From IMG/VR virus record IMGVR_UViG_3300027969_000040: a stretch of DNA of 64,000 nt; one strand, 5' to 3'. Shown piece by piece: positions 662 to 57,480 of the stretch (positions are counted from its first letter, which is position 1; each line of letters opens with the position of its first letter). The translations under genes and the position numbers were made by a program. The notes beneath the pieces are model-generated. The model made no database searches. It was not told the DNA's origin and saw only the letters and a list, made by a program, of their open reading frames with translations. Origin of the DNA: a virus. Lineage: Duplodnaviria; Caudoviricetes.

Positions 662-1057
662 TTAACCGTTAATGTAATTTGGATATGCTTTATTAAACTT
701 ACGCATAATAATGCCAGCTACGCTATTAGCTTCGTTTTCTTCATTGCTACCAGTTTCGCCACTGTTAGCATTGAGTTGATTTTCTTGATGTTGTTTAAAA
801 TGAACAAGTTCGTGTGCCAGTGTTCTACAAATATCAATTGGATGTCTGCGATCTATACCCAAACTAATGGTCATATCTGATGGGGAAAAACTACCAAATG
901 TAGGCTGCTCTTGTTGATTCATTGATTTGAAAATGTTAATTTCGGGTAAGTTAGTTAGTCCTAGTTCTTCCATGGCCAATGGAAGTAAATCCTTTATTGC
1001 ACTGTATACAACTTGGTAGGATTCCTTTGATTCAACTAGGAATTCAACAGCTCTCAT
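662..1057 (-). CDS. HExxH zinc-metallopeptidase-like protein with N-terminal MRAVEFLVE leader
   Basis: LAHELVH plus downstream ENEAN. Probable start 1057 (TAATG coupling) rather than 1096. Confidence 0.7.
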   Translation of the reverse strand: MRAVEFLVESKESYQVVYSAIKDLLPLAMEELGLTNLPEINIFKSMNQQEQPTFGSFSPSDMTISLGIDRRHPIDICRTLAHELVHFKQHQENQLNANSGETGSNEENEANSVAGIIMRKFNKAYPNYING

Positions 1058-4000
1058 TATTCTTGATCTCGCCAACGTTTCTCTGCAGAGTCCCAATATC
1101 TTCCACCAACTACATTTTTGGTTTCTGTTTTAGATTCTTCATATGGTTGCTCTTGTGTATCAGGCTCATTGGTAGCCGGTACAACTTGATCGTAGTCTTT
1201 CATGGTCAGAGTATTACCATTACTACTTAGATTTACTAGTTTTTCTGCCACATCGTGCAAATCTAAGTCAGTTTTTGCATCTTCTCTAGCAAATTCCATT
1301 ACACGCAATAGCATAGGAACATCCATGGTGACAGTATCAGTTGGGTTAGATGATGCTTCTTCGTCTAAGTTTATTAATTTTAGATAGTGGCGCTGTAGAT
1401 ATTCTTTAGCCCATTTTGCATCATCAAATAATGGACCAACACGTACACCTGAATGATTTAACACTTCAAATCTTTCGCCCTTGCTACCGTCCGGTCTCAT
1501 GATATTAACTTTACGTACACGCGGTCTGCCAGATTTAATTTCTTCGCCCTCAGGAATCATACCATTGCGGGCACTGTCTTCTAATTCTAAGTATGCAGCC
1601 TTGGCTTTTTGATAGTTGGTCTCGTCACCAATTTTATCGTAATGTTGCATCAGGTCGTGCAGTCGATCTGCTTCTTTAATATAATCGCGCATGCTCATTT
1701 TAGCAGGTTCGGCAGATTCGTTTTTATCTTGCCACCAGTAATTACCGTTAACAGGTTTTGATTTAGGCAACGATGGTGTTTTATTCAACATACGGCTACG
1801 TGCAGCTAGCGCCATTTTTTTTAATGTTTCTGGATCTTTGCCACTTAGATTAGGATGAGTGGAAGACTGGAAACGTTTAATCCATGTGTCTGGGGAATCG
1901 TTTGCAGTTAGTTTACCTTCGTCTATTTGTTGTGCTAGTATGCGTTCGACTTGTTTAATCCAGCTATTTAAATTATTCGATTCAATACCTTGTGCATTGT
2001 TTCCAACCATGCCTGCAACAGAATTAATAGCATCACTTACACGATCAGACCCATATTTTAGTAAATCTGGTCGTTTTTCTGTAATGCCCTTAACAATGGC
2101 ACTTATAACAGAACTATTCGATACGCCCTCCGCCACACCTTGCTCTTTAACCAAACGTAATGCTGTAGCAGGTAGATTGTTGGCTTGCCCGCCATCGTCT
2201 AGGTCAATGTAATAGGTTTTTGGGGCACCTTTAAAGGCACCGTGCTTAATTTCTCTAATCCAACCGGTCTTACCAGCGTGTTCGCCTTTGACAACTTTTA
2301 CCTTCTTGGCTAGCCCCTTGCCTTCCGCCACACCTTGCTTGTCAATACTTCCCCGTATACCGCATTTAGCACAATGATATTGTGTTAGCGTTGGGTGTTC
2401 TTTTTTCTTTACAGGACCATGGCAATGTGGGCAGGTACCTGTGGCCATTGCCTTGACTTCTTTACTCATATCTTCTTCGGAGCCTTCCGCCACACCTTCA
2501 TTAGGTTTACAGTTGCGAACCTGGCCGCCATTCTTACCTTTCTTAGTACCTACTGCATGTTTGCCTGGCCAGCAACGAGTAAATCCGTTGCTATCTTTGG
2601 CACCTTTCTTAATCTCATTCAAGTTGCCGTGTGTTTGACACATGCCGCAGTCTTCACACACCATTTCCATCTCTACTGATTCGTTGTGTTTTTTCTTGCC
2701 AGCACAATGTGCTCGTTGGCTGAACCCTTTGGGGTGACTACAGTTGATACTGTTCTTGTATTTTTGGCTCCACTCCTCTGCCACACCTTGTGCCGGTGCT
2801 TGAGGTTTAGATTGATTTTTTTGTACCCATTGCATTACTTGAGTTTTTAGTTGTAATGGAACTGTATCTTGTTTACCGTTTACAAAATCTACTACATCTA
2901 TAGTTCTGTTACCAAATGGGCCTTCGCCAGCGGAGTTAGTGCCTACAATACCTTGTGCATTTTGTCCAGCCGTACCTAAGTCTGGATCAGACCCTTTTGC
3001 TAAAAATTTATCAAGTCCTAATGTACTAGCAGTATTAGGTGGCACCCAAGACATTGATGTAAAAGTTACATTGTCGTATGCTGTATGCCCGCCCAATCCT
3101 TCACTTCCTCTATAATCTGCTTTAATATAATTACCGTCGGCCATTTTGAAATAAACTGTGCGAGGTGCAAACATATCTAATTCATTCAATTGATCCTTTG
3201 CTACACTGTGCTCGCCGGTACCTATATAGTGATGGTCGTGTACTTTATAACCTTTTTTGCGATAGTGAGCAATGGCAGATTTAATTGCCTTATCACGATT
3301 GTCGCTAGTTACCTTCACAGTTTTTTGTATAGTTTCTTTACGTTTGCTAACCATTGCGTGATTAGGGTCTGTAACAGTTAAACTAATACGATGTACAGAT
3401 TTTGTGCTTTCGTCAACTTGATCTCCGTTGCCAACTAATCTAATTAGATGCCCTTGTTTAAAATATGTTGGGTGATACATTACTACATTAAAGGTACTAT
3501 CGTTGTTATAGGAAATCTTTACATCACCTCCAGCAGCAACAATCTTACTTTTTATATCTTTTGTTGCTTGTGCATTTTTATTGGGCCCATACATAGCATT
3601 AGCCATTTGGTCTGCTAATTGTAATAGATATTGTTTCTCGTCTCCGCCACCTTCATCTGGTGCAAACTCTTTTAATTTTCTTTGAGCATCAATTTGTGCC
3701 AATTGCTTTCTAGCAGACTGATCTCCGGAGTGGGCGCGATCTATTAGCTTTGCCATGTCAGCTTTTAATTTGGCTATTTTATTATCGATTGAATTAATAT
3801 TACCTTTGACAACGTCATCTGGTACTGCGACTTTTGCACTGCCTGGGAAGTCTCTAAATTCGCCTTCGTTCATTACTCTGCTACTTAAATCGTTAATTTG
3901 AATTTCAAGATTTGCAATTTGTTTTTGATCTTTAACTTTAACTGGATATGGTTTTCCATTCCACTCAAACTGTTGCGCACCTTGTTTAGCGGCTGCAAGA

Positions 4001-4767
4001 TGTGCTTTTGCAAAAGCCAATGCTTCCTCTGTTGTACCAAATACTTTACTGGCTAGCCATTTAAGAGTTTTGTAAGTTATTACTCCACCTAATACTGCCA
4101 TTGCTCCTGTCAGCAATCCTGCACCTAGTGCCGGAGCAAATAAAGCAATACCCCCGCCAGAGCTTGCCATAGTAACACCAGCAGTGGAACCAGTTAATCC
4201 TGCCCCTACACCAACCCCTAATGCTTTGTTTAACTCGGTGTCGTGCATAAACGAATCTGCATTTCTGAGTTTATTTCCTAGTTCACTTCCCGGAAATAAT
4301 GCTTCGTTTACTTCAGACTCGTTCTTAACAAGTCCCATATCTTCAAGGTACTCAACTGCCTTTAATAAATTGGGTGTTGTTTTTTCTGTAGTCTTACCGT
4401 TATGTGTAATTCTTAATACATTTGTATCGCCGTCGGTACTGATAGTAGCAGTAACTTCTGAATTATCTGGATCTATGTAACTTAATATTTCTTTAAATTT
4501 ATCTTCTATAGTTTCTTTTTCTTTTTTATCAGCGTAAGTTCCGTTTTTACCTCTGATTAAATTGTGTACTTTGCCTTCTTTGTCGGTTCTGGTCATTGCG
4601 GCAGGTTTAAGGAATGCAGCATCGTATGCAACAGCCGTTCCGAATTTCTTTTCCAATGTGGAAAGGTCGTATGCTTTTGCTTCTTTGTCTTCGGTTTGAA
4701 TTGTTTTATTTTTAATCTGACCTAAAAATTCACGATCGTCATCGCTGAACATATCTAATACATACAT
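1057..4767 (-). CDS. 1236-aa mosaic protein of short modules (KOW-like, Cys/Zn ribbons, helical modules) joined at xxE sites
   Basis: Four GVAE linkers; CxxC pairs (CEDCGMC, CPHCH..CAKC); KOW-like KVKVVKGEHAGKTG. Confidence 0.85.
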   Translation of the reverse strand: MYVLDMFSDDDREFLGQIKNKTIQTEDKEAKAYDLSTLEKKFGTAVAYDAAFLKPAAMTRTDKEGKVHNLIRGKNGTYADKKEKETIEDKFKEILSYIDPDNSEVTATISTDGDTNVLRITHNGKTTEKTTPNLLKAVEYLEDMGLVKNESEVNEALFPGSELGNKLRNADSFMHDTELNKALGVGVGAGLTGSTAGVTMASSGGGIALFAPALGAGLLTGAMAVLGGVITYKTLKWLASKVFGTTEEALAFAKAHLAAAKQGAQQFEWNGKPYPVKVKDQKQIANLEIQINDLSSRVMNEGEFRDFPGSAKVAVPDDVVKGNINSIDNKIAKLKADMAKLIDRAHSGDQSARKQLAQIDAQRKLKEFAPDEGGGDEKQYLLQLADQMANAMYGPNKNAQATKDIKSKIVAAGGDVKISYNNDSTFNVVMYHPTYFKQGHLIRLVGNGDQVDESTKSVHRISLTVTDPNHAMVSKRKETIQKTVKVTSDNRDKAIKSAIAHYRKKGYKVHDHHYIGTGEHSVAKDQLNELDMFAPRTVYFKMADGNYIKADYRGSEGLGGHTAYDNVTFTSMSWVPPNTASTLGLDKFLAKGSDPDLGTAGQNAQGIVGTNSAGEGPFGNRTIDVVDFVNGKQDTVPLQLKTQVMQWVQKNQSKPQAPAQGVAEEWSQKYKNSINCSHPKGFSQRAHCAGKKKHNESVEMEMVCEDCGMCQTHGNLNEIKKGAKDSNGFTRCWPGKHAVGTKKGKNGGQVRNCKPNEGVAEGSEEDMSKEVKAMATGTCPHCHGPVKKKEHPTLTQYHCAKCGIRGSIDKQGVAEGKGLAKKVKVVKGEHAGKTGWIREIKHGAFKGAPKTYYIDLDDGGQANNLPATALRLVKEQGVAEGVSNSSVISAIVKGITEKRPDLLKYGSDRVSDAINSVAGMVGNNAQGIESNNLNSWIKQVERILAQQIDEGKLTANDSPDTWIKRFQSSTHPNLSGKDPETLKKMALAARSRMLNKTPSLPKSKPVNGNYWWQDKNESAEPAKMSMRDYIKEADRLHDLMQHYDKIGDETNYQKAKAAYLELEDSARNGMIPEGEEIKSGRPRVRKVNIMRPDGSKGERFEVLNHSGVRVGPLFDDAKWAKEYLQRHYLKLINLDEEASSNPTDTVTMDVPMLLRVMEFAREDAKTDLDLHDVAEKLVNLSSNGNTLTMKDYDQVVPATNEPDTQEQPYEESKTETKNVVGGRYWDSAEKRWRDQE
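2128..2790 (-). repeat. Dispersed repeat (C/G)AAGGTGTGGC(G/A)GA(A/G)G encoding (Q/E)GVAE
   Basis: Copies at 2128-2142, 2322-2337, 2483-2498 and 2776-2790; degenerate copy at 5751-5766 (QSVTE). Confidence 0.9.
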
Positions 4768-4768
4768 A

Positions 4769-5308
4769 TTAACCTCCCTGCCCTGACATATTTTGTTTTA
4801 CTGTGTTTGTAAGTGTCCCCAATTGGCTTGACGATAAGCCAGCATTGGCTAACATCTGTGCCATTGCTGCTAATCCTTGTGGATTAATTGGCGGTGTTGG
4901 TTTTGGTGTTTGCCCCGGCGTAGAACCAACTGTTGTTGTTTTTGGTGCAGTGTTGGCCGCAGTAGTAGGCGGTGTAGTCTGACCAGCAGATGTAGTTGGT
5001 GCAGCTTGCCCTGCAGATGCAGACGGTGTAGTTTGAGCTTGCCCTGCAGATTGCCCTACAGTTCCGACTACACCTACTTCGTTTATACTTCTTACATATT
5101 TTTGGTCTTTAAAATATTCAACCAATGAATCAACACTATCGTGATAATCGATTCCTGATTCAAGCAAATCATTTACAGATTGTTTAATGAAATGTCTTTC
5201 ATTCTCAGTTATACCGCCGTATACATTTTTATCTTCAACGATATCGTTTACACGTACCAGGCCTTCTACAATCCTGTTTAATAGTGTTGATGAAATAGAG
5301 TCAATCAT
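4769..5308 (-). CDS. Hypothetical protein with Thr/Pro/Ala-rich C-terminal linker
   Basis: 179-aa ORF in the operon; IVE/ITE/INE junction motifs. Confidence 0.8.
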   Translation of the reverse strand: MIDSISSTLLNRIVEGLVRVNDIVEDKNVYGGITENERHFIKQSVNDLLESGIDYHDSVDSLVEYFKDQKYVRSINEVGVVGTVGQSAGQAQTTPSASAGQAAPTTSAGQTTPPTTAANTAPKTTTVGSTPGQTPKPTPPINPQGLAAMAQMLANAGLSSSQLGTLTNTVKQNMSGQGG

Positions 5309-6267
5309 TTGCTGGTCCTTGACTTGGGACGGCCACCAAACAATTCACCTGCTTGTTGTCCACCCATATTAGTTGCCATACCACCACTTGAACTAGCACC
5401 TGCCGTTGATTCAAATTCTGCATCTGGCGCATCTACATCGCCTATTTTACTAGAGTTCATTGTGATGCCTTTATATTTAATTTTTAGATTAGAATACATG
5501 TTACCACGTTGTCTTAAAAAATTACTTAACCATTTGTCGGCCTGTATAATAACTTGTTTTGGTGCGCCTCCCCAATTATATTTTTCTATCATTGGTGTTA
5601 GATCAAATTCCTTATACTCACCACCCATTAGCATAGATGCCATTAATTTATTTGGATCGGTCTGATCGGCTGCTTTTGCTAACCCAGGTGCTGCTGCTAC
5701 TGCTGCGGCTGCACCAGCGCGCCCAAGGAATCCTCTACGGTTCATATCAGCTTCCGTCACACTTTGCTGACCTAATACAGGACCAACTTGAATACCTTTG
5801 CTTGCTAGTAAATCTTTAATACGACCGGCTCTGTTACTAGCGGCTTCATACTCTTGCTGTGTTTTGGCATTTTTTACAGCCATGACTGCTTGTTGGTATT
5901 GTTGTTTCCACTCATTAGCACCGGGTGTTTTGATAGAGGAGCCGTCTGGATAATCGCCTTCCTCTACAATGCCAAGAGTATTCATGTTCTCGTCGGCAAC
6001 TTTGTTCTCCATATGAGAACCTAATTCGTATTCTAACCATTCTTTTACATTACGTAAGTAATCATTCGCCAAAGTTATCTTTTCGCTTGCCCACCCCGGT
6101 ATACCATCTTCCTCGCTGATTTTTTTAAGCATTCTATGCAGTTCCATGGCATTTGATGCAGAATGATAACATTCTTCTCTGGCCATTTGTACTTCGTGGT
6201 CCATATGCATAGACTCAGCTGCTTGGACAATTGGGTGTTTTTCGGGTATAAAATCTATAGGTTTCAT
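5305..6267 (-). CDS. Mosaic protein with an internal twin-arginine signal-like segment
   Basis: 320 aa; DHEVQMAR..WASEKITLANDYL module; internal SVTE-ADMNRRGFLGRAGAAAAVAAAPGLAKA. Confidence 0.85.
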   Translation of the reverse strand: MKPIDFIPEKHPIVQAAESMHMDHEVQMAREECYHSASNAMELHRMLKKISEEDGIPGWASEKITLANDYLRNVKEWLEYELGSHMENKVADENMNTLGIVEEGDYPDGSSIKTPGANEWKQQYQQAVMAVKNAKTQQEYEAASNRAGRIKDLLASKGIQVGPVLGQQSVTEADMNRRGFLGRAGAAAAVAAAPGLAKAADQTDPNKLMASMLMGGEYKEFDLTPMIEKYNWGGAPKQVIIQADKWLSNFLRQRGNMYSNLKIKYKGITMNSSKIGDVDAPDAEFESTAGASSSGGMATNMGGQQAGELFGGRPKSRTSK

Positions 6268-6304
6268 AGTAGTAAATTGGTTAGTAATGTATTTATGTTA
6301 CAGT

Positions 6305-7903
6305 TTAATACGCACTGTTGGACTTGATGATAACTTGATCAATGGGTAAACTAGCCACTGAGTTATTAAGGCTAGTCCAGGACTCGATTCCTGTATTCTT
6401 ATTAGGGGTAAACAATACTTTATCGTTTTTAACTTCACCAGTAGCTATTCCTACTGGTTTACCTTTCCACCAAACAACATCGCCGCTTTTAACACGCTCT
6501 GCTTTATTCAAAAATTGGTCTGGTGGTGTAATGCCTTCTGTTACTTTATTTTCTAACTTATTAAAGAATATTACAATTGCTTGTTTTACATCTTCGGCAG
6601 CATATAATCTATCATTAGTGATAGCCAATCGTTTAGAAAACAGATCTCCGTCTTCTTTACTTTTAGCATATTCCTTTGCTGCAAGACTAGAAAAATGTGC
6701 TCGCGCTGCATATAGTCTACGTAATTCCATCCATTCTTCTTCGTCTGGCGTGGGTCTTGGATCGTGTTGCAGCAAAGACAATCGCTTCATTCTTTCTGCA
6801 TATTTTACCAACTCCACAGCTACTTTTTCTGCAAGGTGACCTTCGTATGGTTTTTCTTGTATAGGGGTATAGTCATTGACATCGTCCCAATTTGGATCTA
6901 CAAGATCGCCTTCGGGATCGAGCTCGGAGCGTGACAAGTATTGAACAAGTTTTTTTGCTAGATTGCTGTTGGTATCAGACATTTTTAAAAAGGCAAGGCG
7001 TCCTGCATTCAGCCCCCTTTCTGCAAATAATCGTGCTAACTCTACTAATTCCCTAGTATCTTTTTCAACTTCAGGATCTGACTCGGGGTCTAAGAACGTT
7101 CTTGTAAATTTTATAATTTCGCTGGCATATTTATAAGGTCTGTAGTCTGTTACACGTTGTTTAAAATCTTCTTCTAAGTTAGTTGCAGCGTCAACAACTG
7201 GGTCATATGGTATTTTATTAAAAATATGTACCAACTCAGGGGTTGCTTGCCCGTATAATTGTGTTAAGAATTCTTTACTGGCATTTTCATCTTCCCGCAC
7301 CATATTCCATAACATCCTGCATTCAGTGCCATGGCTAGCATCGTATGTCTTTCCATTGATATTAACCTGTGCTGGTTTTTCTGCTACAACTATTACATAG
7401 CTATGTTTGTCTGCGGTAGTTGATTCTGCAATGGATTTAAATGTTAAGAATGGTTTAAGATCACCAACATTTTTACCAGGCGGTATTCTGGACTTCCTGG
7501 GTGACCCGTCTTTTTTCGGTTTGGGTGTAAATTGTGTATAGACACTATCAACTTCTAGTCGTTGTTTATCTGGTTCGCCTACAGCAAAAATGGCTATTGT
7601 TTTACTAGGATCAAATCCTAATATTCTTGCATAATCTTGAATTTCGTAAGGTTGATTGGCTTCAACAATACGATCGTTATGTACACCTGCGGCATGCATT
7701 AGCTGTACTTTATCAGTAAAGCTAAATGGACTTTTAGGTAGATCTACATTATTACTAGTACCAATGAATACATTATCACGACCAAATTTTCTTTGCAGTT
7801 CGTTAAAAACCGCACTATGCCCTTTATGAAACGGCTGGAACCTTCCTGGGTAAATAACCACAATGTGGGTTGCTTGGGATTCAAAAAGGTCAAATACAAA
7901 CAT
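6305..7903 (-). CDS. HIGH-motif nucleotidyltransferase (cytidylyltransferase/NMNAT-like) fused to extra modules
   Basis: IYPGRFQPFHKGH near the N-terminus; later modules follow NLEE and KVTE junctions. Confidence 0.75.
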   Translation of the reverse strand: MFVFDLFESQATHIVVIYPGRFQPFHKGHSAVFNELQRKFGRDNVFIGTSNNVDLPKSPFSFTDKVQLMHAAGVHNDRIVEANQPYEIQDYARILGFDPSKTIAIFAVGEPDKQRLEVDSVYTQFTPKPKKDGSPRKSRIPPGKNVGDLKPFLTFKSIAESTTADKHSYVIVVAEKPAQVNINGKTYDASHGTECRMLWNMVREDENASKEFLTQLYGQATPELVHIFNKIPYDPVVDAATNLEEDFKQRVTDYRPYKYASEIIKFTRTFLDPESDPEVEKDTRELVELARLFAERGLNAGRLAFLKMSDTNSNLAKKLVQYLSRSELDPEGDLVDPNWDDVNDYTPIQEKPYEGHLAEKVAVELVKYAERMKRLSLLQHDPRPTPDEEEWMELRRLYAARAHFSSLAAKEYAKSKEDGDLFSKRLAITNDRLYAAEDVKQAIVIFFNKLENKVTEGITPPDQFLNKAERVKSGDVVWWKGKPVGIATGEVKNDKVLFTPNKNTGIESWTSLNNSVASLPIDQVIIKSNSAY

Positions 7904-7951
7904 AAAAATTCCTTATCTAATATTTATGGTCATTGATAAGAATCGTTGAAT

Positions 7952-7986
7952 CAAAAAAAAAGACTGAAATAATTTCAGTCTTTTTT
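7952..7986. terminator. Intrinsic terminator, bidirectional-looking
   Basis: A-run, AGACTGAAAT-A-ATTTCAGTCT, T-run. Confidence 0.85.
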
Positions 7987-7999
7987 ATGTATTGTAATT

Positions 8000-8854
8000 T
8001 TATTCTGCTGGTGTTGGTGCTTTTGGCGCTTTAGAAAAGTCCGGCATTTGACTCAAATCACCTTTGTATTCATAGTGCCCGATGTGATTTAACAAGACTT
8101 TGTTATGTGCCCAAATTTCGCCGCCAATAGCTTGCCAGCGTCGGCAGAACAGCCAATCTTCGCTAAGATAGTGGCCTTTTGCATCAATTGCTGTGTCAAA
8201 TATAGCATACATCATTGGTTCGTATTGCTTGCCTAACCCTACATCATCTACATACTTGGTTTCTGGATGTGCAGCAATTAGTTGCTCATATACGCTACGT
8301 TTAAAGATTAAAAATCCAGTTCCCATAGTATCTACTGTAAAGATATCGCCCTGTATTTTAGTCTGCGGCAACAAGTTAATCACATAGTTACTAGGAATGC
8401 TTTTCTTAGGATACAATCCGCCGATGACATCTTTTTCATAAACAAGCATTTGAAATATTGATTCTGCATCAAATCTGATATCTGCATCAATGAACATAAA
8501 ATGTGTAGCCTTATCATTAGTCATCATTTTAGCCATTAAATTATTACGGCCACGAGTAATTAAACTCTCGTTAACCATAGTATCTAAACTCCAATTGAGT
8601 CCTGTCCGTTGAGCCATTAATATGAAACGTAATAAACTGGTCATGGTAGGTTCGCTACACATACCGCCGTAGCATGGAATTCCAATATGCAAATGAAGTT
8701 TACTAAAATCGTACGGAGTGCCATTTTGTTGCTTCTCTTGTACTGCTTCACTTTGTTTTTTCATTATATCGGCAATTTTTTGTACAACGTCTGTAGCACT
8801 TTCACCGGGCAAATTAATTGGATTGCTCGATTCTGATTGATTATTATTTTCCAT
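8000..8854 (-). CDS. GT-A fold glycosyltransferase-like protein
   Basis: IGIPCYGG, NESLITRGRN, FMFIDADI (DxD) and YLSEDWLFCRRW motifs. Confidence 0.75.
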   Translation of the reverse strand: MENNNQSESSNPINLPGESATDVVQKIADIMKKQSEAVQEKQQNGTPYDFSKLHLHIGIPCYGGMCSEPTMTSLLRFILMAQRTGLNWSLDTMVNESLITRGRNNLMAKMMTNDKATHFMFIDADIRFDAESIFQMLVYEKDVIGGLYPKKSIPSNYVINLLPQTKIQGDIFTVDTMGTGFLIFKRSVYEQLIAAHPETKYVDDVGLGKQYEPMMYAIFDTAIDAKGHYLSEDWLFCRRWQAIGGEIWAHNKVLLNHIGHYEYKGDLSQMPDFSKAPKAPTPAE

Positions 8855-8864
8855 TTTTTTCTTT

Positions 8865-9590
8865 CTATTGATTTTTCTGATTGATTATAGTTTGATTTAC
8901 TGACCCAATTAAGGATGGTGATAACATTTTGAGTATATCTAACATCTTAATATCATTAAGATATATGAAGCCGCCTTGAAAATATTTATATCTATCCGAT
9001 AGCCTCTCCAATATAAACTTTGATATTTTTATCTCTCCATCTAAATTTTTTATATAATTTACTAGTGCATGTCGATCCTCAAGTTTGATGAAACCTTCTT
9101 TTAAGCGTACCTTATACGGATGATCACTTTCTTTTTTAGTGATAATAAAACCTTGATCTAACAATTTTTTGTCCGAATCAAATTCTAACAACGAAACCGA
9201 ACTCAATCTAGTTTTATGCTCGCTTAAAATTTCATTAGCTACATTATACAAGTAAGATTCTGAATCTGCAAATACAGTGAAAGAATAATAACTAATTCTA
9301 AATTTTACTTTAACATTGGTTGGTGTTGTATAATATTTGTAAAAGTCTTCTAGTGTTTTTAAACTTGCATTTTGATTTTTGTATCTGACAAATCTGTCTG
9401 TGTTTCTATAATTAAAAGCCTTCACAGTTGATGGTAGTTTATCAGCAGTTTTACAATTAATCAAACATCTTGCACCTTGTAAATTATAAGTTAAACTGTA
9501 ACAAAACTCGTTAAAAAATTTCTTCTTAGTATAAAGAAATCGCAAGTCTCGATTTAGTTTACTCCACTCTGATAAATCCATTTTTGTCAA
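8865..9590 (-). CDS. Hypothetical protein
   Basis: 241-aa ORF overlapping the 3' end of clpA. Confidence 0.75.
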   Translation of the reverse strand: MTKMDLSEWSKLNRDLRFLYTKKKFFNEFCYSLTYNLQGARCLINCKTADKLPSTVKAFNYRNTDRFVRYKNQNASLKTLEDFYKYYTTPTNVKVKFRISYYSFTVFADSESYLYNVANEILSEHKTRLSSVSLLEFDSDKKLLDQGFIITKKESDHPYKVRLKEGFIKLEDRHALVNYIKNLDGEIKISKFILERLSDRYKYFQGGFIYLNDIKMLDILKMLSPSLIGSVNQTIINQKNQ

Positions 9591-11862
9591 CTGATGGTAC
9601 CCCTTCGATCAATAGCTGCATGTTATAGGCAATTACAGTAAAAGTCAAATCTTTTTCCTGGCAATCTACATTAATAATAGATCCGTTTTCCAAATTCTCA
9701 AACAATATTTTTTTACTAATAGGTACTTTAATCAAATCGTTAATTACACGATTCAATGGCCTTGCGCCCATTCTCTTATCAAACCCTTTTTCAACTAGTA
9801 AGTCAACGGCACGTTCAGTTAGACGCAATTTAATTTGTCTATCGGATAGTAAATCATTGATTTCTGACATAAATTTAGCGACAATCTTTTTCATGCTAAA
9901 CTGATCTAATGTTTTAAACTTACATATAGCATCAAGTCTATTTCGAAACTCGGGTTTAAAAAATTCCTTAACTGCCTTATCGTCCTCACCTGTGCGCTCT
10001 AACGATTGACCAAATCCAATGGTATTGCGTTCGTTATCGGCAGCGCCTAGATTACTAGTCATAATTAAAATAGAGTTACGTGCATCGGCTTTTTTACCAT
10101 TGCTACCAGTAATAAATCCTTCATCCATAAATTGCAACAAGATATTTGTTACATCAGGATGAGCTTTTTCAATCTCATCTAATAGGATAATTGAGTTTGG
10201 ATTTTGTTCTAAAGCACTAATTAATAATCCACTGCCAGCTGCTGAATCTTCATATCCAACATACCCAGGAGGTGCACCGATTAACTTAGCCATGCTATGT
10301 TTTTCTTGGTACTCACTCATATCGTAGCGAACCATCTTCATTGACAAATTGGTTGCAAGTAACTTAGCTAATTCAGTTTTTCCAGTACCAGTTGGCCCCA
10401 AGAATAAAAAGCTACCAATTGGTTTGTTAATTGATTTAATACCTGCTTTACTTACGAATATTCGCTCTAACACAGAAGTTACGGCATCCTCTTGACCGTA
10501 CAGCCCTTGGTTTATATTGATTTCTAAATTAACAAGGCTATTAGTATTATCACTGCCAATTTGATCAACTGGTATCTTAGTAGCGCGACTTAGTGCTTCT
10601 ACAATCTGCGATTTGCCTAATACAAAGTCTGAATCTTGCTTGATTTGTATTTTTTGTTTAGCACATGCAGTATCCATTAAGTCTATTGCTTTGTCTGGCA
10701 GCTTTTTGTCAGGTTGATATCTAATGCTATAATCAACGGCGGCATCAATTGATTCATCTGAAATTTTAATGTTATGGAATTTTTCAAAATTTAATCTTAT
10801 ACCTTTAAGTATAAGTTTCGAATCACTTGCACTAGGTTCGTCTACAGTTAATCGTTGAAATCTACGCATCAATGCTCGATCTTTTTCGAAGCTTTGTACA
10901 TATTCATCCCATGTAGTAGATGCGATAACTTTAATCTTGCCCTTAGTTAATGCAGGTTTAATCATGTTACTAAAGTCGACCGAGCTAGAAGAGCCACCGC
11001 CAGCGCCACGCATCTGATGTGCCTCGTCGATGAATAGTATAGTTTTTTCTTTCATTATCAATGCTTTGATAACATTCTGAAATTTTTCTTCAAACTCGCC
11101 TCTATACTTACTTCCAGCTAATAAGCTACCTATATCTAAGTTATACACAGTATATGACTTTAGATATTCTGGTACATTACCGTCTACTATATTTTTAGCA
11201 AGTCCTTCTGCTAACATTGTTTTACCAACGCCCGGATCACCAACTAATAGGATATTGGCTTTATTACGTTTAGCCAATATATGAGACATTTCTGTTAGTT
11301 CAAACTCTCGTCCAATAATAGGATCAAGTTCACCTTTCTTGGCCAAGTTGTTCAGATTTGTACAAAACTCATCTAACATTTCTTCGGCACGCTCTGCATT
11401 TATATTTGGAGAATTTAAATCCGACTCGGTATTAAATTTTTTGTATAATTCCATTAGGGTTGCACGATCAATTCCGTACTTTAACATAAAATAGAATGCA
11501 TAGCTATTTGATTCCATTGAAATGCTTAATACCAAGTCAATGATTTTAATACGGTTAGATCCGTGAAACAACACTTGTGTTAGTGCTCTATTAAATACAC
11601 GTTCTAACGTTTGTGTTTTTCTTGGAGTATGCGATTCTTCGACTACTAAATGTGTTTGTGCATTTAAATAATGGCTTAGTTCACCCACCAGGCCGTTGAC
11701 ATCAAAATTTAATTTTATCAATATCTTCTTAAAAGGACTATATTGAAAAATAGCCAATGCTAGATGTTCTAAAGTTACATATTCATGTTTAAGCGACTTA
11801 GCAGCCTCGCTGGCTTTAAGTATAATTTCTTCAATCTCTGCATTTGGTCTCATTGACGACAT
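9559..11862 (-). CDS. clpA: ATP-dependent Clp protease ATPase subunit, ClpA-type
   Basis: Clp N-domain (HEYVTLEHL); Walker A motifs GDPGVGKT and GPTGTGKT; Walker B motifs FIDEAH and LLDEIEK; IGF loop (TIGFG); no ClpB middle domain. Confidence 0.92.
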   Translation of the reverse strand: MSSMRPNAEIEEIILKASEAAKSLKHEYVTLEHLALAIFQYSPFKKILIKLNFDVNGLVGELSHYLNAQTHLVVEESHTPRKTQTLERVFNRALTQVLFHGSNRIKIIDLVLSISMESNSYAFYFMLKYGIDRATLMELYKKFNTESDLNSPNINAERAEEMLDEFCTNLNNLAKKGELDPIIGREFELTEMSHILAKRNKANILLVGDPGVGKTMLAEGLAKNIVDGNVPEYLKSYTVYNLDIGSLLAGSKYRGEFEEKFQNVIKALIMKEKTILFIDEAHQMRGAGGGSSSSVDFSNMIKPALTKGKIKVIASTTWDEYVQSFEKDRALMRRFQRLTVDEPSASDSKLILKGIRLNFEKFHNIKISDESIDAAVDYSIRYQPDKKLPDKAIDLMDTACAKQKIQIKQDSDFVLGKSQIVEALSRATKIPVDQIGSDNTNSLVNLEININQGLYGQEDAVTSVLERIFVSKAGIKSINKPIGSFLFLGPTGTGKTELAKLLATNLSMKMVRYDMSEYQEKHSMAKLIGAPPGYVGYEDSAAGSGLLISALEQNPNSIILLDEIEKAHPDVTNILLQFMDEGFITGSNGKKADARNSILIMTSNLGAADNERNTIGFGQSLERTGEDDKAVKEFFKPEFRNRLDAICKFKTLDQFSMKKIVAKFMSEINDLLSDRQIKLRLTERAVDLLVEKGFDKRMGARPLNRVINDLIKVPISKKILFENLENGSIINVDCQEKDLTFTVIAYNMQLLIEGVPSVDKNGFIRVE

Positions 11863-33581: not shown

Positions 33582-33635
33582 TTAAAATTGTTCCATACAT
33601 ACTATATTTATGGAACAATTTATAACCAACTATTA

Positions 33636-35213: not shown

Positions 35214-35753
35214 TTAACTTAAAAAAGGACGTACCCCGTATAAATCTGCTACTGCTTCTCTATTAGTTCTTACCATATATTCCTGTGCCCAATCCCAGGC
35301 ACTTTGACGATCGGGCGCAGTAAATGTAATTATTAATTGGTCACTGGATCTTTTGTATATTTCCCATTCTTGGGAATTATCATTATACTGCTGATCTTGA
35401 CTTGCGTCAACTGTATCCCAACCCAATAATCCATTGTTTGGAGTAACATCCATTCCTAGCCCTTTTAATGGGGATAAAACCGGAACCACTTCGATTTCAT
35501 TATGGTAATTATTTCTTTCGGCCCAACTCCGTGCAATTTTATTTGCATCGTCTTGTACATTTCCTATCCCACTAAATCTATACAGTTCTCTACCACTGGA
35601 GTCTATCACAGACCATGCACCACTGAATGCACCCATACGTTGATAATTATTGCCATTTCTAGTAAATAATCTATTTAGATTGTTTTTAATTCTATTAGAT
35701 TTACCAAAGAATTTGTCATTGTCAGATTCGGCAATAATTTCGTTAGCTCGCAT
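35214..35753 (-). CDS. Hypothetical protein with MRANEIIAE leader
   Basis: 179 aa; internal repeat W.I......L..F...........AW. Confidence 0.75.
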   Translation of the reverse strand: MRANEIIAESDNDKFFGKSNRIKNNLNRLFTRNGNNYQRMGAFSGAWSVIDSSGRELYRFSGIGNVQDDANKIARSWAERNNYHNEIEVVPVLSPLKGLGMDVTPNNGLLGWDTVDASQDQQYNDNSQEWEIYKRSSDQLIITFTAPDRQSAWDWAQEYMVRTNREAVADLYGVRPFLS

Positions 35754-39637: not shown

Positions 39638-39655
39638 AATATTTTTCCTTTATAT

Positions 39656-40186
39656 TTATTCGTTATTAGCTGATCTTAATGGATACAGCGGCCATGATAC
39701 TTCTTTGGTCGGAGTCATTGGATCATAAGTTTTAGTCATATCTCTGAGTTGCTGTCTATAATTTAATACATCTTTGATTTGATCAGATGTTAATGATTTT
39801 GGCATTCCTAATATAGATTCTTCGTTGTGACGTAAAACAACCCAATCGCAGCCAGATAATCTACTATCTCTTTCCATTTCCATAGTAATTACAAATTCTG
39901 TTTTTTTAGATCTAATCTTAGCTGCTTCGGCTAGTGCGGTTAAATTATTTTTAAGCCAGGCTATCTCAATTGATGATTCGCCATTTTCGTTTAGTCCACC
40001 TGGCCGTTCAATATGAAATATATTTCGGTCTGGTTCAAAACTTAATATTCTTACTGTTTCTTCAAAAGGAAAGTTTGTAGAAGTTATAAAATCGTCCGAA
40101 TTGTCCCAATAGCCATGATTCTTTTTAATTTTAATACTAAAATTTTGGTTGTAGAAATCCATGCTTATATATGTATAATCCATCAT
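39656..40186 (-). CDS. Tail fibre assembly chaperone-like protein
   Basis: ERDSRL..CDW.VL...YRQQLRD....WP motif. Confidence 0.75.
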   Translation of the reverse strand: MMDYTYISMDFYNQNFSIKIKKNHGYWDNSDDFITSTNFPFEETVRILSFEPDRNIFHIERPGGLNENGESSIEIAWLKNNLTALAEAAKIRSKKTEFVITMEMERDSRLSGCDWVVLRHNEESILGMPKSLTSDQIKDVLNYRQQLRDMTKTYDPMTPTKEVSWPLYPLRSANNE

Positions 40187-42418: not shown

Positions 42419-42450
42419 CTTTTTCTCTCCAATTTATTTATATTTATCGG

Positions 42451-46577: not shown

Positions 46578-46648
46578 AATAAGATCCTCAATATTGTTAT
46601 ATTTATGGATCTTAGCATATAGGTTAAATCAACCTATAATAAAAATTA

Positions 46649-56635: not shown

Positions 56636-56687
56636 ACCAATATTTACCCGTCTAATTAATTTTAAATATTACACTTATGTTACATAA

Positions 56688-56711
56688 GAAGAAACCCGCC
56701 GAAGCGGGTCC
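56688..56711 (-). terminator. Intrinsic terminator of the tmRNA gene
   Basis: ACCCGC-TTCG-GCGGGT-TTCTTCTT on the minus strand. Confidence 0.85.
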
Positions 56712-56755
56712 TTGCTATTTTTGGTGACAAGGTATAACTACCTCGGGTCTAGCAA

Positions 56756-56857
56756 TCAAGCGGCTAGTAAAACTGCTGAGTCATTAGCGGCTTGACGTCC
56801 AAAACGGAAGTTTTTGCCCATAGTAACTTTTACAGTACCTGTTGTATTTGCGTTTGC
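56756..56857 (-). other. tmRNA tag reading frame ANANTTGTVKVTMGKNFRFGRQAANDSAVLLAA*
   Basis: Translated from the GCA after TAAAT to TGA; 33 sense codons. Confidence 0.75.
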
Positions 56858-57013
56858 ATTTACGGATTTTGCGTCTGCAACCAAGCTTCGTCTTTCTATG
56901 CTATGAGCATAGCGACTAAAGTTACCTTAGTCCTGCGGCTTCTGCATTGCCGAGCTGTCCACTCATTTACTTGTTGCTCTGTCGAAACCAGGGCAGGCCC
57001 ATCAAAAAGAAAC

Positions 57014-57148
57014 TTACCATTTACCAATTGGACAATGTGCAAATGGTATTAAAGTTTTAGCCGGCATGTAACATCCGCACTTGTTGCAAACTTTTCGATC
57101 AGTATCAAAATGCTCACATACTATACAAATTGTGTACTTGTCGTTCAT
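57014..57148 (-). CDS. 44-aa Cys-rich protein inside the tmRNA intervening sequence (MNDKYTICIVCEHFDTDRKVCNKCGCYMPAKTLIPFAHCPIGKW)
   Basis: Manual translation; AAGGA SD; CxxC..CxxCGC..K..CP.GKW pattern (DUF6171-like). Confidence 0.8.
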   Translation of the reverse strand: MNDKYTICIVCEHFDTDRKVCNKCGCYMPAKTLIPFAHCPIGKW

Positions 57149-57243
57149 GAATTCCTTTTTGGTGGACCTGGCGGGAGTCGAACCCGCGTCCAGAACACTT
57201 TTCTCTTTGCTTCATACAGCAATAACTTTTATTTATCTCCAAA

Positions 57244-57480
57244 TCAATGTCTCACAGCAAACATACTGCTGATCATTGCTCTTACTAAAACTAAATCACT
57301 TTCACATGTAACTTCTATAGGTTCATCAAGATCTTCATCATCTTCCCATGCTTCCTTTGGAAACTGTAAAAAAGTAAAGATAGTTCTAAAGGTCACAGTC
57401 CTGCCTTGCGTGTAAGCCAACTCTATCACATCCACTATAGAATTCACCACCTGCTGTGTCTTGAAATCTAGCGGAGTCAT
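57244..57480 (-). CDS. Hypothetical protein
   Basis: 78-aa ORF. Confidence 0.65.
   Translation of the reverse strand: MTPLDFKTQQVVNSIVDVIELAYTQGRTVTFRTIFTFLQFPKEAWEDDEDLDEPIEVTCESDLVLVRAMISSMFAVRH

Follow-up and report, generated by a model that had tools for sequence, protein, structure and literature searches.

Shuffled module arrays of a metagenomic jumbo phage as candidate polyproteins of the phage head

The window considered here (the whole 64,000-nt stretch of the IMG/VR virus record IMGVR_UViG_3300027969_000040) comes from a metagenomic jumbo phage, carries nearly all of its genes on the minus strand, and contains between positions 1057 and 7903 four consecutive open reading frames (ORFs; P0001 to P0004) whose products read as arrays of small modules. 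The modules, the hydrophobic-x-Glu sites that precede them and the T4-like leaders found at N-termini together suggest precursors from which many cargo proteins would be released by cleavage inside the phage head. We lean modestly towards the reading that these arrays are head-targeted polyproteins which the prohead protease would cut, and whose linkers would double as shuffling joints; the products would be packaged and injected. The ORFs (in which the only domain recognised by Pfam and PHROGs is a nucleotidyltransferase at the start of P0004) are as follows, with predicted junctions marked by a slash here and below:

1057-4767, minus strand: P0001, 1236 aa, an array of ~12 modules with the type-2 leader MYVLDMF
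4769-5308, minus strand: P0002, 179 aa, six [LIV]xE sites within residues 1-77 and a Pro/Thr-rich low-complexity middle
5305-6267, minus strand: P0003, 320 aa, leader MKPIDFIPE/K, module a (residues 10-103), module b (104-172) and a module with a twin-arginine translocation (Tat) signal (173-320)
6305-7903, minus strand: P0004, 532 aa, type-2 leader MFVFDLFE/S, nucleotidyltransferase module at about residues 1-240 and C-terminal segments of unassigned function

The P0001 protein is recorded on a 260-kb contig, and for the rest of the genome we used the IMG/VR contig L001/G001 (109 kb), which is essentially the same phage and spans the region downstream of the window. A near-identity DNA search against cultured phages returned no match.

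Module borders and the hydrophobic-x-Glu junction

An initial annotation of this DNA had listed 15 [LIV]xE-type motifs as the joints of the four ORFs, and all 15 are found where it had placed them. At least 11 of the 15 (including 11 of the 12 in P0001) coincide with homology breakpoints, which in P0001 are E155, E301, E367, E453, E529, E664, E761, E815, E880, E950 and E1136 (i.e. the borders fall between residue pairs 155/156, 301/302, 367/368, 453/454, 529/530, 664/665, 761/762, 815/816, 880/881, 950/951 and 1136/1137). The remaining P0001 motif, NLNE718, had to be dropped as a border, as it sits inside the Cys-rich module, which is always contiguous; KVTE456 of P0004 is not among the supported borders either. 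In P0003, a breakpoint near residue 177 is compatible with E172 (SVTE172, just ahead of the Tat module), and an additional border that had been missed was recovered at IVEE103/GDYPDG; E245 of P0004 is near a breakpoint, with homology stopping at residues 232-240. Profiling the endpoints of high-scoring segment pairs across the family gave an enrichment of only ~2.6x at the sites, because these segments extend into the shared linkers; anchoring on module starts worked better.

Full-length, colinear homologues, which the annotation had named as evidence to the contrary, were not seen: the relatives share single modules, in differing orders and with differing neighbours. More than 120 relatives of P0001 (690-1900 aa), drawn from 5.8 billion proteins searched, share 5-12% of its length at 80-90% identity, and each module is met again in hundreds of phage proteins from metagenomes, elsewhere in the chain and next to different neighbours, almost always directly following a hydrophobic-x-Glu. 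The P0003 module at residues 9-82 recurs at many positions in other proteins, its segment 101-210 is found within the P0001 orthologues P0005 and P0006, and residues 1-232/240 of P0004 head other arrays of the family that also bear the Cys-rich module. The earlier observation of strings of unrelated modules is confirmed and strengthened; for P0002 no homologue was detected, and its membership of the family is put forward from its position only. Residues 156-301 of P0001 (window 3865-4302, minus strand) contain a Gly/Ala-rich hydrophobic stretch of ~50 residues (GVGVGAGLTGSTAGVTMASSGGGIALFAPALGAGLLTGAMAVLGGVITY) that looks membrane-inserting, and this module recurs in other arrays following MDE/A[LM]FPGS.

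The most conserved and most widespread of the modules, hereafter module D, is the following:

2485-2775, minus strand: Cys-rich basic module D, P0001 residues 665-761, EWSQKYKNSINCSHPKGFSQRAHC...

It was retrieved in 2191 clusters (50% identity; E<=1e-3) of a library of 1.84 billion proteins, at any position of host proteins of 141-1296 aa; it matched no Pfam family, gave no useful Atlas lead and received no confident AlphaFold2 (AF2) fold (predicted local distance difference test, pLDDT, <40). Among the other predicted modules, the nucleotidyltransferase of P0004 is confirmed (PF01467, 39.4 bits, residues 17-110; TIGR00125 above cut-off), a Zn ribbon finds support in the AF2 model of P0001 residues 655-955, and the KOW-like domain had a match under threshold (E 0.045). 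The relatives contain Pfam matches to DUF6321, DUF5872, DUF7351, Zn ribbons, Lar-like proteins and zeta-toxin/AAA_33, to sigma70 region 4, the SutA RNA polymerase-binding domain, GP88 and PG_binding_1, together with internal Tat signals and, in some of them, a deaminase domain (PF00383, precomputed Pfam matches). To judge from its sequences, such a repertoire would suit host takeover. The earlier proposal (i.e. head-packaged effector polyproteins) is partly supported, effector roles being putative for nearly all modules.

At the protein level, no 4-mer is as frequent among 120 family proteins as GVAE (265 observed against 3.2 expected), which has a consensus context of [KEQ]-Q-G-V-A-E-G; within the window it is confined to P0001, where the linkers are:

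2776-2790, minus strand: QGVAE linker 1, P0001 residues 660-664, DNA CAAGGTGTGGCAGAG
2485-2499, minus strand: EGVAE linker 2, P0001 residues 757-761, C-terminal edge of module D
2323-2337, minus strand: QGVAE linker 3, P0001 residues 811-815, DNA CAAGGTGTGGCGGAA, between the Zn-ribbon and KOW-like modules
2128-2142, minus strand: QGVAE linker 4, P0001 residues 876-880, DNA CAAGGTGTGGCGGAG, recombination breakpoint relative to the IMG/VR variant L001

In the AF2 model of P0001 residues 655-955 the GVAE linkers have pLDDT <50, and the Zn-ribbon and helical modules between them 78-94. Directly upstream of module D, Glu occupies position P1 in 70 of 70 non-redundant contexts, P3 is mostly hydrophobic (V40, L15, M4, Y3, T3, F2), and P2 and the positions from P4 onward are variable. 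About 30 of these 70 junctions are not GVAE, with varied residues and codons, and still hold the P1 Glu throughout; one near-complete module-D phage has no GVAEG site at all, and other modules are preceded by LNE/, MDE/, LGE/ or VAE/. As GVAEG is therefore not universal, we take the generic junction to be hydrophobic-x-Glu. Family-wide (redundant modules counted), [LIVM]xE occurs at 1.69x the shuffled expectation (z 33.6), as against 1.09x for [LIVM]xD and 1.02x for [LIVM]xK.

We regard as highly implausible the explanation that the pattern is an artefact, produced by chance [LIV]xE sites or by chimeric metagenome assemblies across a repeated module. The relatives are mostly metagenomic, one IMG/VR contig ends ~40 codons upstream of a linker (within the divergent module), and the raw motif density of P0001 is ordinary; yet modules and junctions are present both in cultured, fully sequenced cyanophages, in differing arrangements, and in records that have terminal repeats, and neither the excess of GVAE nor the invariant P1 Glu agrees with chance. 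The signal that greatly exceeds chance is that the sites coincide with homology-defined module borders.

A coding linker conserved as DNA

The GVAE linker is constrained not only as protein. Across 80 loci and the window, 122 of 174 GVAE sites are encoded by the identical 12-mer GGTGTGGCGGAA, by means of codons that are rare in the same ORFs (GTG 84% at the sites vs 25%; GCG 87% vs 11%), and the conserved DNA core of the linker, approximately CAAGGTGTGGCGGAAG (~16 nt), is bounded by unrelated flanks. Moreover, the IMG/VR variant L001 is ~95% identical to the window downstream of linker 4 and unrelated to it upstream, the switch falling inside GTGGCGGA. Given the conservation at the DNA level and a breakpoint inside the linker, the QGVAEG linker is a natural recombination joint between phages, and inter-phage recombination at this joint explains the extreme mosaicism of the arrays. 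Neither the DNA-level constraint nor the joint role was part of the initial annotation.

These same observations (the shared 12-mer in rare codons, the short core between unrelated flanks and the switch of identity exactly within the linker) favour an alternative in which the arrays, as multidomain proteins of polyvalent type, would stay uncleaved and act as entire chains, the linker being a DNA joint for in-frame cassette swaps and QGVAEG a tolerated flexible linker; some polyvalent proteins, for example the virion RNA polymerase (vRNAP) of phage N4, are indeed packaged unprocessed (PMC5512222). We nevertheless find this alternative rather unlikely, as the ~30 of 70 module-D junctions that are not GVAE keep their P1 Glu in spite of varied codons, the leaders end in the same Glu, internal Tat signals make little sense within an intact chain, and the enrichment is limited to xE (as compared to xD or xK). 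A role as recombination joint accounts neither for leaders and Tat signals nor for the generic Glu junctions.

Leaders, Tat signals and candidate processing enzymes

A 9-aa leader of the form M[KR]xxE[FI][ILV]xE lies directly ahead of module D (which then reads /xWSQKYK) in 42 of 136 top representatives, e.g. MRANEFITE/K, MKINEILTE/K and MKAYEFVTE/K, and 61 of 240 family proteins match the leader M..xE[FI][ILV]xE. These leaders resemble the T4 capsid targeting sequence (CTS) MKTYQEFIAE, which is encoded twice in T4 (ipII and ipIII) by identical DNA. In T4 internal protein III (IPIII) the first 10 residues are enough for head targeting, residues 8 and 10 control processing (Black review, PMC9026906), and the gp21 protease cleaves after L/I-X-E (PMC9026906). 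The phage studied here has CTS-like leaders in P0003 (MKPIDFIPE) and in two further proteins:

662-1057, minus strand: P0133, 131 aa, CTS-like leader MRAVEFLVE/S followed by a minimal zincin metallopeptidase (HELVH and a downstream Glu); its start overlaps the P0001 stop
35214-35753, minus strand: P0134, 179 aa, standalone, leader MRANEIIAE/S, in the tail-fibre region

The P0134 module is found near module-D arrays at 7 other phage loci. Within the window, leader-like N-termini of the family were found only in P0133, P0001, P0003, P0004 and P0134; P0135 (58899-59441, minus strand) has a leader-like start, MIRNFINIVE/T, that falls outside the family leader patterns, and a weak match to a PGDYG domain (E 0.006). 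Modules are met both behind leaders of their own and within arrays, fused and free versions being interchangeable: in P0133 the zincin stands alone behind a leader, in locus L017 of another phage it is fused via VFE/ to module D, and gp206 of cyanophage S-SRM01 begins M-GWSEKYK, exactly at the predicted mature end.

The same phage encodes a T4-like head block (portal, an acidic protein, a Peptidase_S77 protease, a scaffold-like protein and the major capsid protein). The protease (PF03420, 84.8 bits; phrog_207), whose gene is flanked by those for portal and capsid on either side in this block, shows 36% identity to T4 gp21 and keeps the columns of the catalytic T4 residues His85 and Ser140. Peptidase_S77 was above cut-off in 7 of the 10 large IMG/VR records with module D, including all 4 records that are >=90% complete. 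The N-terminal 42 residues of the capsid protein carry four L-x-E-type sites (LLE7, LLE19, ILE34 and LAE42), all of which precede the part alignable to mature T4 gp23, which begins just past the T4 maturation site. Encoded at L005:8749-9918 (minus strand, outside the window), the major capsid protein has 389 aa, lacks the T4 gp23 insertion, and finds its closest cultured relatives among PA5oct/Rak2-type jumbo phages (65-68% identity). Between portal and protease, L005:11697-12674 (minus strand) encodes a very acidic, repeat-containing protein of 325 aa in which ENPFGDEEGGEEG occurs twice; it occupies the T4 gp67/gp68 position and is likely a component of the prohead core.

The strongest functional argument for new N-termini at the junctions comes from the internal Tat signals, since a Tat signal is expected to function at an N-terminus. 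The one in the window is:

5671-5751, minus strand: internal twin-arginine signal ADMNRRGFLGRAGAAAAVAAAPGLAKA of P0003, directly after SVTE172 (TIGR01409 exactly at cut-off)

P0003 residues 177-199 read RRGFLGRAGAAAAVAAAPGLAKA/ADQ. The family holds 13 non-redundant internal Tat-like signals, and in 11 of the 13 the distance from the end of a hydrophobic-x-Glu to the RR that follows it is 2-4 residues (for any hydrophobic-x-Glu site within 14 residues, the null rate is 0.28).

Promoter-like signals in the sequence would fit late expression: 12 coding-strand genes, among them four tail-fibre genes, P0004 and P0003, have an ATAAATA box 21-37 nt ahead of their starts. Around the arrays these signals are:

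7921-7927, minus strand: late-promoter-like ATAAATA, 24 nt ahead of the start of P0004
~7950-7990: hairpin and T-run terminator, just upstream of the P0004 ATAAATA box
6290-6296, minus strand: late-promoter-like ATAAATA, 29 nt ahead of the start of P0003

Other boxes are found at, e.g., 46600-46606, 42441-42447, 39653-39659 and 33605-33611, collagen-like tail-fibre genes included. Set beside the T4-type late promoter consensus, the ATAAATA set looks like late promoters of T4 type; the strict full TATAAATA showed no enrichment in the window, the shorter ATAAATA being the positioned form. The gp21-family protease, the LxE-rich capsid N-terminus, the leaders, the Tat signals and the promoter boxes all lend indirect support to the junctions as protease sites.

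The zincin P0133, which the initial annotation had missed, is a second candidate processing enzyme. In this alternative the arrays would be processed by the co-encoded zincin, with those homologues that are fused to modules, or else by a protease of the host; this would happen cytoplasmically or post-entry, the prohead protease being uninvolved. Several observations would fit: P0133 directly follows P0001 with stop and start overlapping; its H82, E83, H86 and E107 (HExxH and a downstream Glu) are invariant in 11 homologues; its AF2 model (pLDDT 86) has a zincin-like fold whose best PDB match is Wss1 (template modelling score, TM, 0.62); zincins lie <=6 kb from module D in 11 of 80 loci, with the fusion in L017; and processing of polyvalent proteins by zincins has been proposed (Iyer et al. 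2017, PMC5512222). On the other hand, the junction motif fits the gp21-type specificity L/I-X-E (PMC9026906), the zincin itself bears a CTS-like leader or a VFE/ joint like any cargo module, it occurs in a minority of loci only (many of them truncated), all of its PDB fold matches are weaker than E 1e-3, and its Pfam M78 match is under threshold. We know of no zincin specificity that fits the junction motif, and on balance consider this route quite improbable. Directly upstream of the zincin-module-D fusion, L017:3009-5588 (plus strand) is an 859-aa ORF without leader or GVAE motif.

Besides the presence of this second enzyme, several observations weigh against cleavage by the prohead protease. 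The [LIVM]xE density of P0001 (1.6 per 100 aa) is ordinary when set beside that of other window ORFs (0-3.5), so that density by itself proves nothing. The array genes lie ~75 kb from the head-gene block, and the second leader type (P0001 MYVLDMF, P0004 MFVFDLFE) is less similar to the T4 CTS. The phages with module D are probably one related clade, and the co-occurrence of Peptidase_S77 is consequently not independent evidence. It could be that invariant Glu and hydrophobic P3 belong structurally to the N-terminus of each module, and that the amino-acid motif QGVAEG, conserved in part at the DNA level, is a by-product of that conservation. In T4, furthermore, many small cleavage products exit the head. 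Finally, cleavage, packaging and ejection are, for all members, steps that we infer from sequence.

Two further genes adjoin the arrays. Just upstream of them, window 9559-11862 (minus strand) encodes a 767-aa ClpA/ClpB-like double AAA+ protein (phrog_4871, E 1e-239), homologues of which lie <=6 kb from module D in 7 other phage loci, and which might act in the unfolding or loading of cargo, or assist post-entry. Window 8000-8854 (minus strand) encodes a 284-aa phrog_1574 protein of unassigned function that is a conserved array neighbour in 8 of 80 loci. At window 56665-57252 (minus strand), ARAGORN predicted a permuted (two-piece) tmRNA gene.

Relation to known systems and meaning

Multi-module proteins encoded in late structural regions of cultured T4-like cyanophages also contain module D along with other modules, in differing arrangements. 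The ORF directly after g23 of P-TIM68 has the N-terminus MMKSFIDFSE and the junction RMNE/GWSDKYK, the array proteins of S-CAM9 (gp160), S-SRM01 (gp206) and S-SM2 are encoded between g16 and g17, and that of S-SCSM2R (815 aa) beside an NMNAT gene. A cytidylyltransferase (T4-GC190) is reported from S-SM1 virions in the main text of Sullivan 2010; a link between it and P0004 was rejected, P0004 not being a close homologue of cyanophage cytidylyltransferases. A supplement search aimed at the module returned nothing.

The arrays are reminiscent of T4 IPI, IPII, IPIII and Alt in that a short leader ends in hydrophobic-x-Glu and a protease of the gp21 family is encoded in the genome, and of the T4 internal proteins in their diverse, fast-evolving payloads; T4 ipII and ipIII share identical leader DNA, and the arrays share linker DNA. 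Searches of the four ORFs with PHROG and Pfam gave no homology to IPI, IPII, IPIII or Alt, and whereas a T4 internal protein has one payload behind one cleaved leader, here up to ~12 modules with internal sites are strung in one ORF. With polyvalent proteins (PMC5512222) the arrays share many unrelated domains per polypeptide in highly variable architectures, a zincin metallopeptidase in the system (P0133 adjacent, fused in L017), the delivery with DNA and the proteolytic release that are predicted for both, and, in relatives, counter-host module types (sigma70 region 4, the SutA RNA polymerase-binding domain, zeta-toxin kinase and Lar-like modules). They are unlike these in their small modules, explicit protease-type junction motif, conserved DNA joint and CTS-like leaders, and none of the hallmark polyvalent domains (SWI2/SNF2 with adenine methylase, ArdC-N, DdrB-ParB, ART, PBECR) was found by Pfam in the four ORFs and nine relatives. 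In phiKZ, 201phi2-1 and SPN3US, a gp21-related protease (gp175/gp245) cuts many head proteins, inner-body and ejection proteins among them, after Glu, with the motif S/A-X-E and multiple sites per precursor (PMC9026906, PMC10052503); in SPN3US every identified substrate cleavage removes an N-terminal propeptide rather than freeing modules from an array (PMC10052503). The arrays depart from the phiKZ type in having V/L/M (not S/A) at P3 and a capsid of PA5oct/Rak2 type. Two systems with comparable joints are the promoter early stem-loop (PeSL) mobile regulatory cassettes (Arbiol et al. 2010) and the T4-type internal protein locus (Repoila et al. 1994), in both of which short conserved sequences around variable genes are reported to act as recombination joints in modular shuffling; those joints are intergenic or at gene starts, whereas the present ones are in-frame coding sequence within an ORF. 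The arrays thus differ from both T4 internal proteins and polyvalent proteins by holding many small payloads behind explicit junction motifs, together with a coding recombination joint. The literature that was searched, the coverage of which is incomplete, contained no prior description of such arrays.

On the assumption that the arrays are head-targeted polyproteins, late-expressed precursors of head cargo would be encoded by P0004, P0003, P0001 and the small zincin gene P0133, and probably by P0002, each precursor being carried into the prohead core by its short T4-CTS-like leader. There, the gp21-type serine protease would cut after Glu at the junctions before every module and give rise to pieces of 55-190 aa, which would remain with the DNA and enter the host upon infection; some of the pieces would reveal an N-terminal Tat signal only once cut, and might then be exported by the host to the periplasm. 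As a broader and more tentative proposal, which we think possible but would not wager on, the arrays may represent a widespread in-frame cassette system of aquatic jumbo and T4-like phages, in which one joint (approximately CAAGGTGTGGCGGAAG, QGVAEG) would serve both as shuffling site and as protease site, so that a single late gene would deliver a changeable set of small proteins, some of them becoming Tat substrates only after cleavage and reaching the periplasm.

If the polyprotein reading is correct, a few polyprotein genes would allow phages of a large aquatic clade to load their heads with an adjustable mixture of small effectors, which would extend the T4 internal-protein paradigm and would provide the polyvalent-protein idea with an explicit, testable cleavage code. 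It would also supply a rule (leader plus hydrophobic-x-Glu junctions) for spotting virion-delivered early effectors in metagenomes, and a likely context for thousands of proteins of unassigned function, including the hosts of the module found in 2191 clusters. The internal Tat signals suggest an unexpected route, by which injected proteins would be re-exported via the host Tat pathway. The conserved coding joint, for its part, is a clear natural case of in-frame module shuffling, and could be used as a design for packing several foreign proteins into T4-type capsids.

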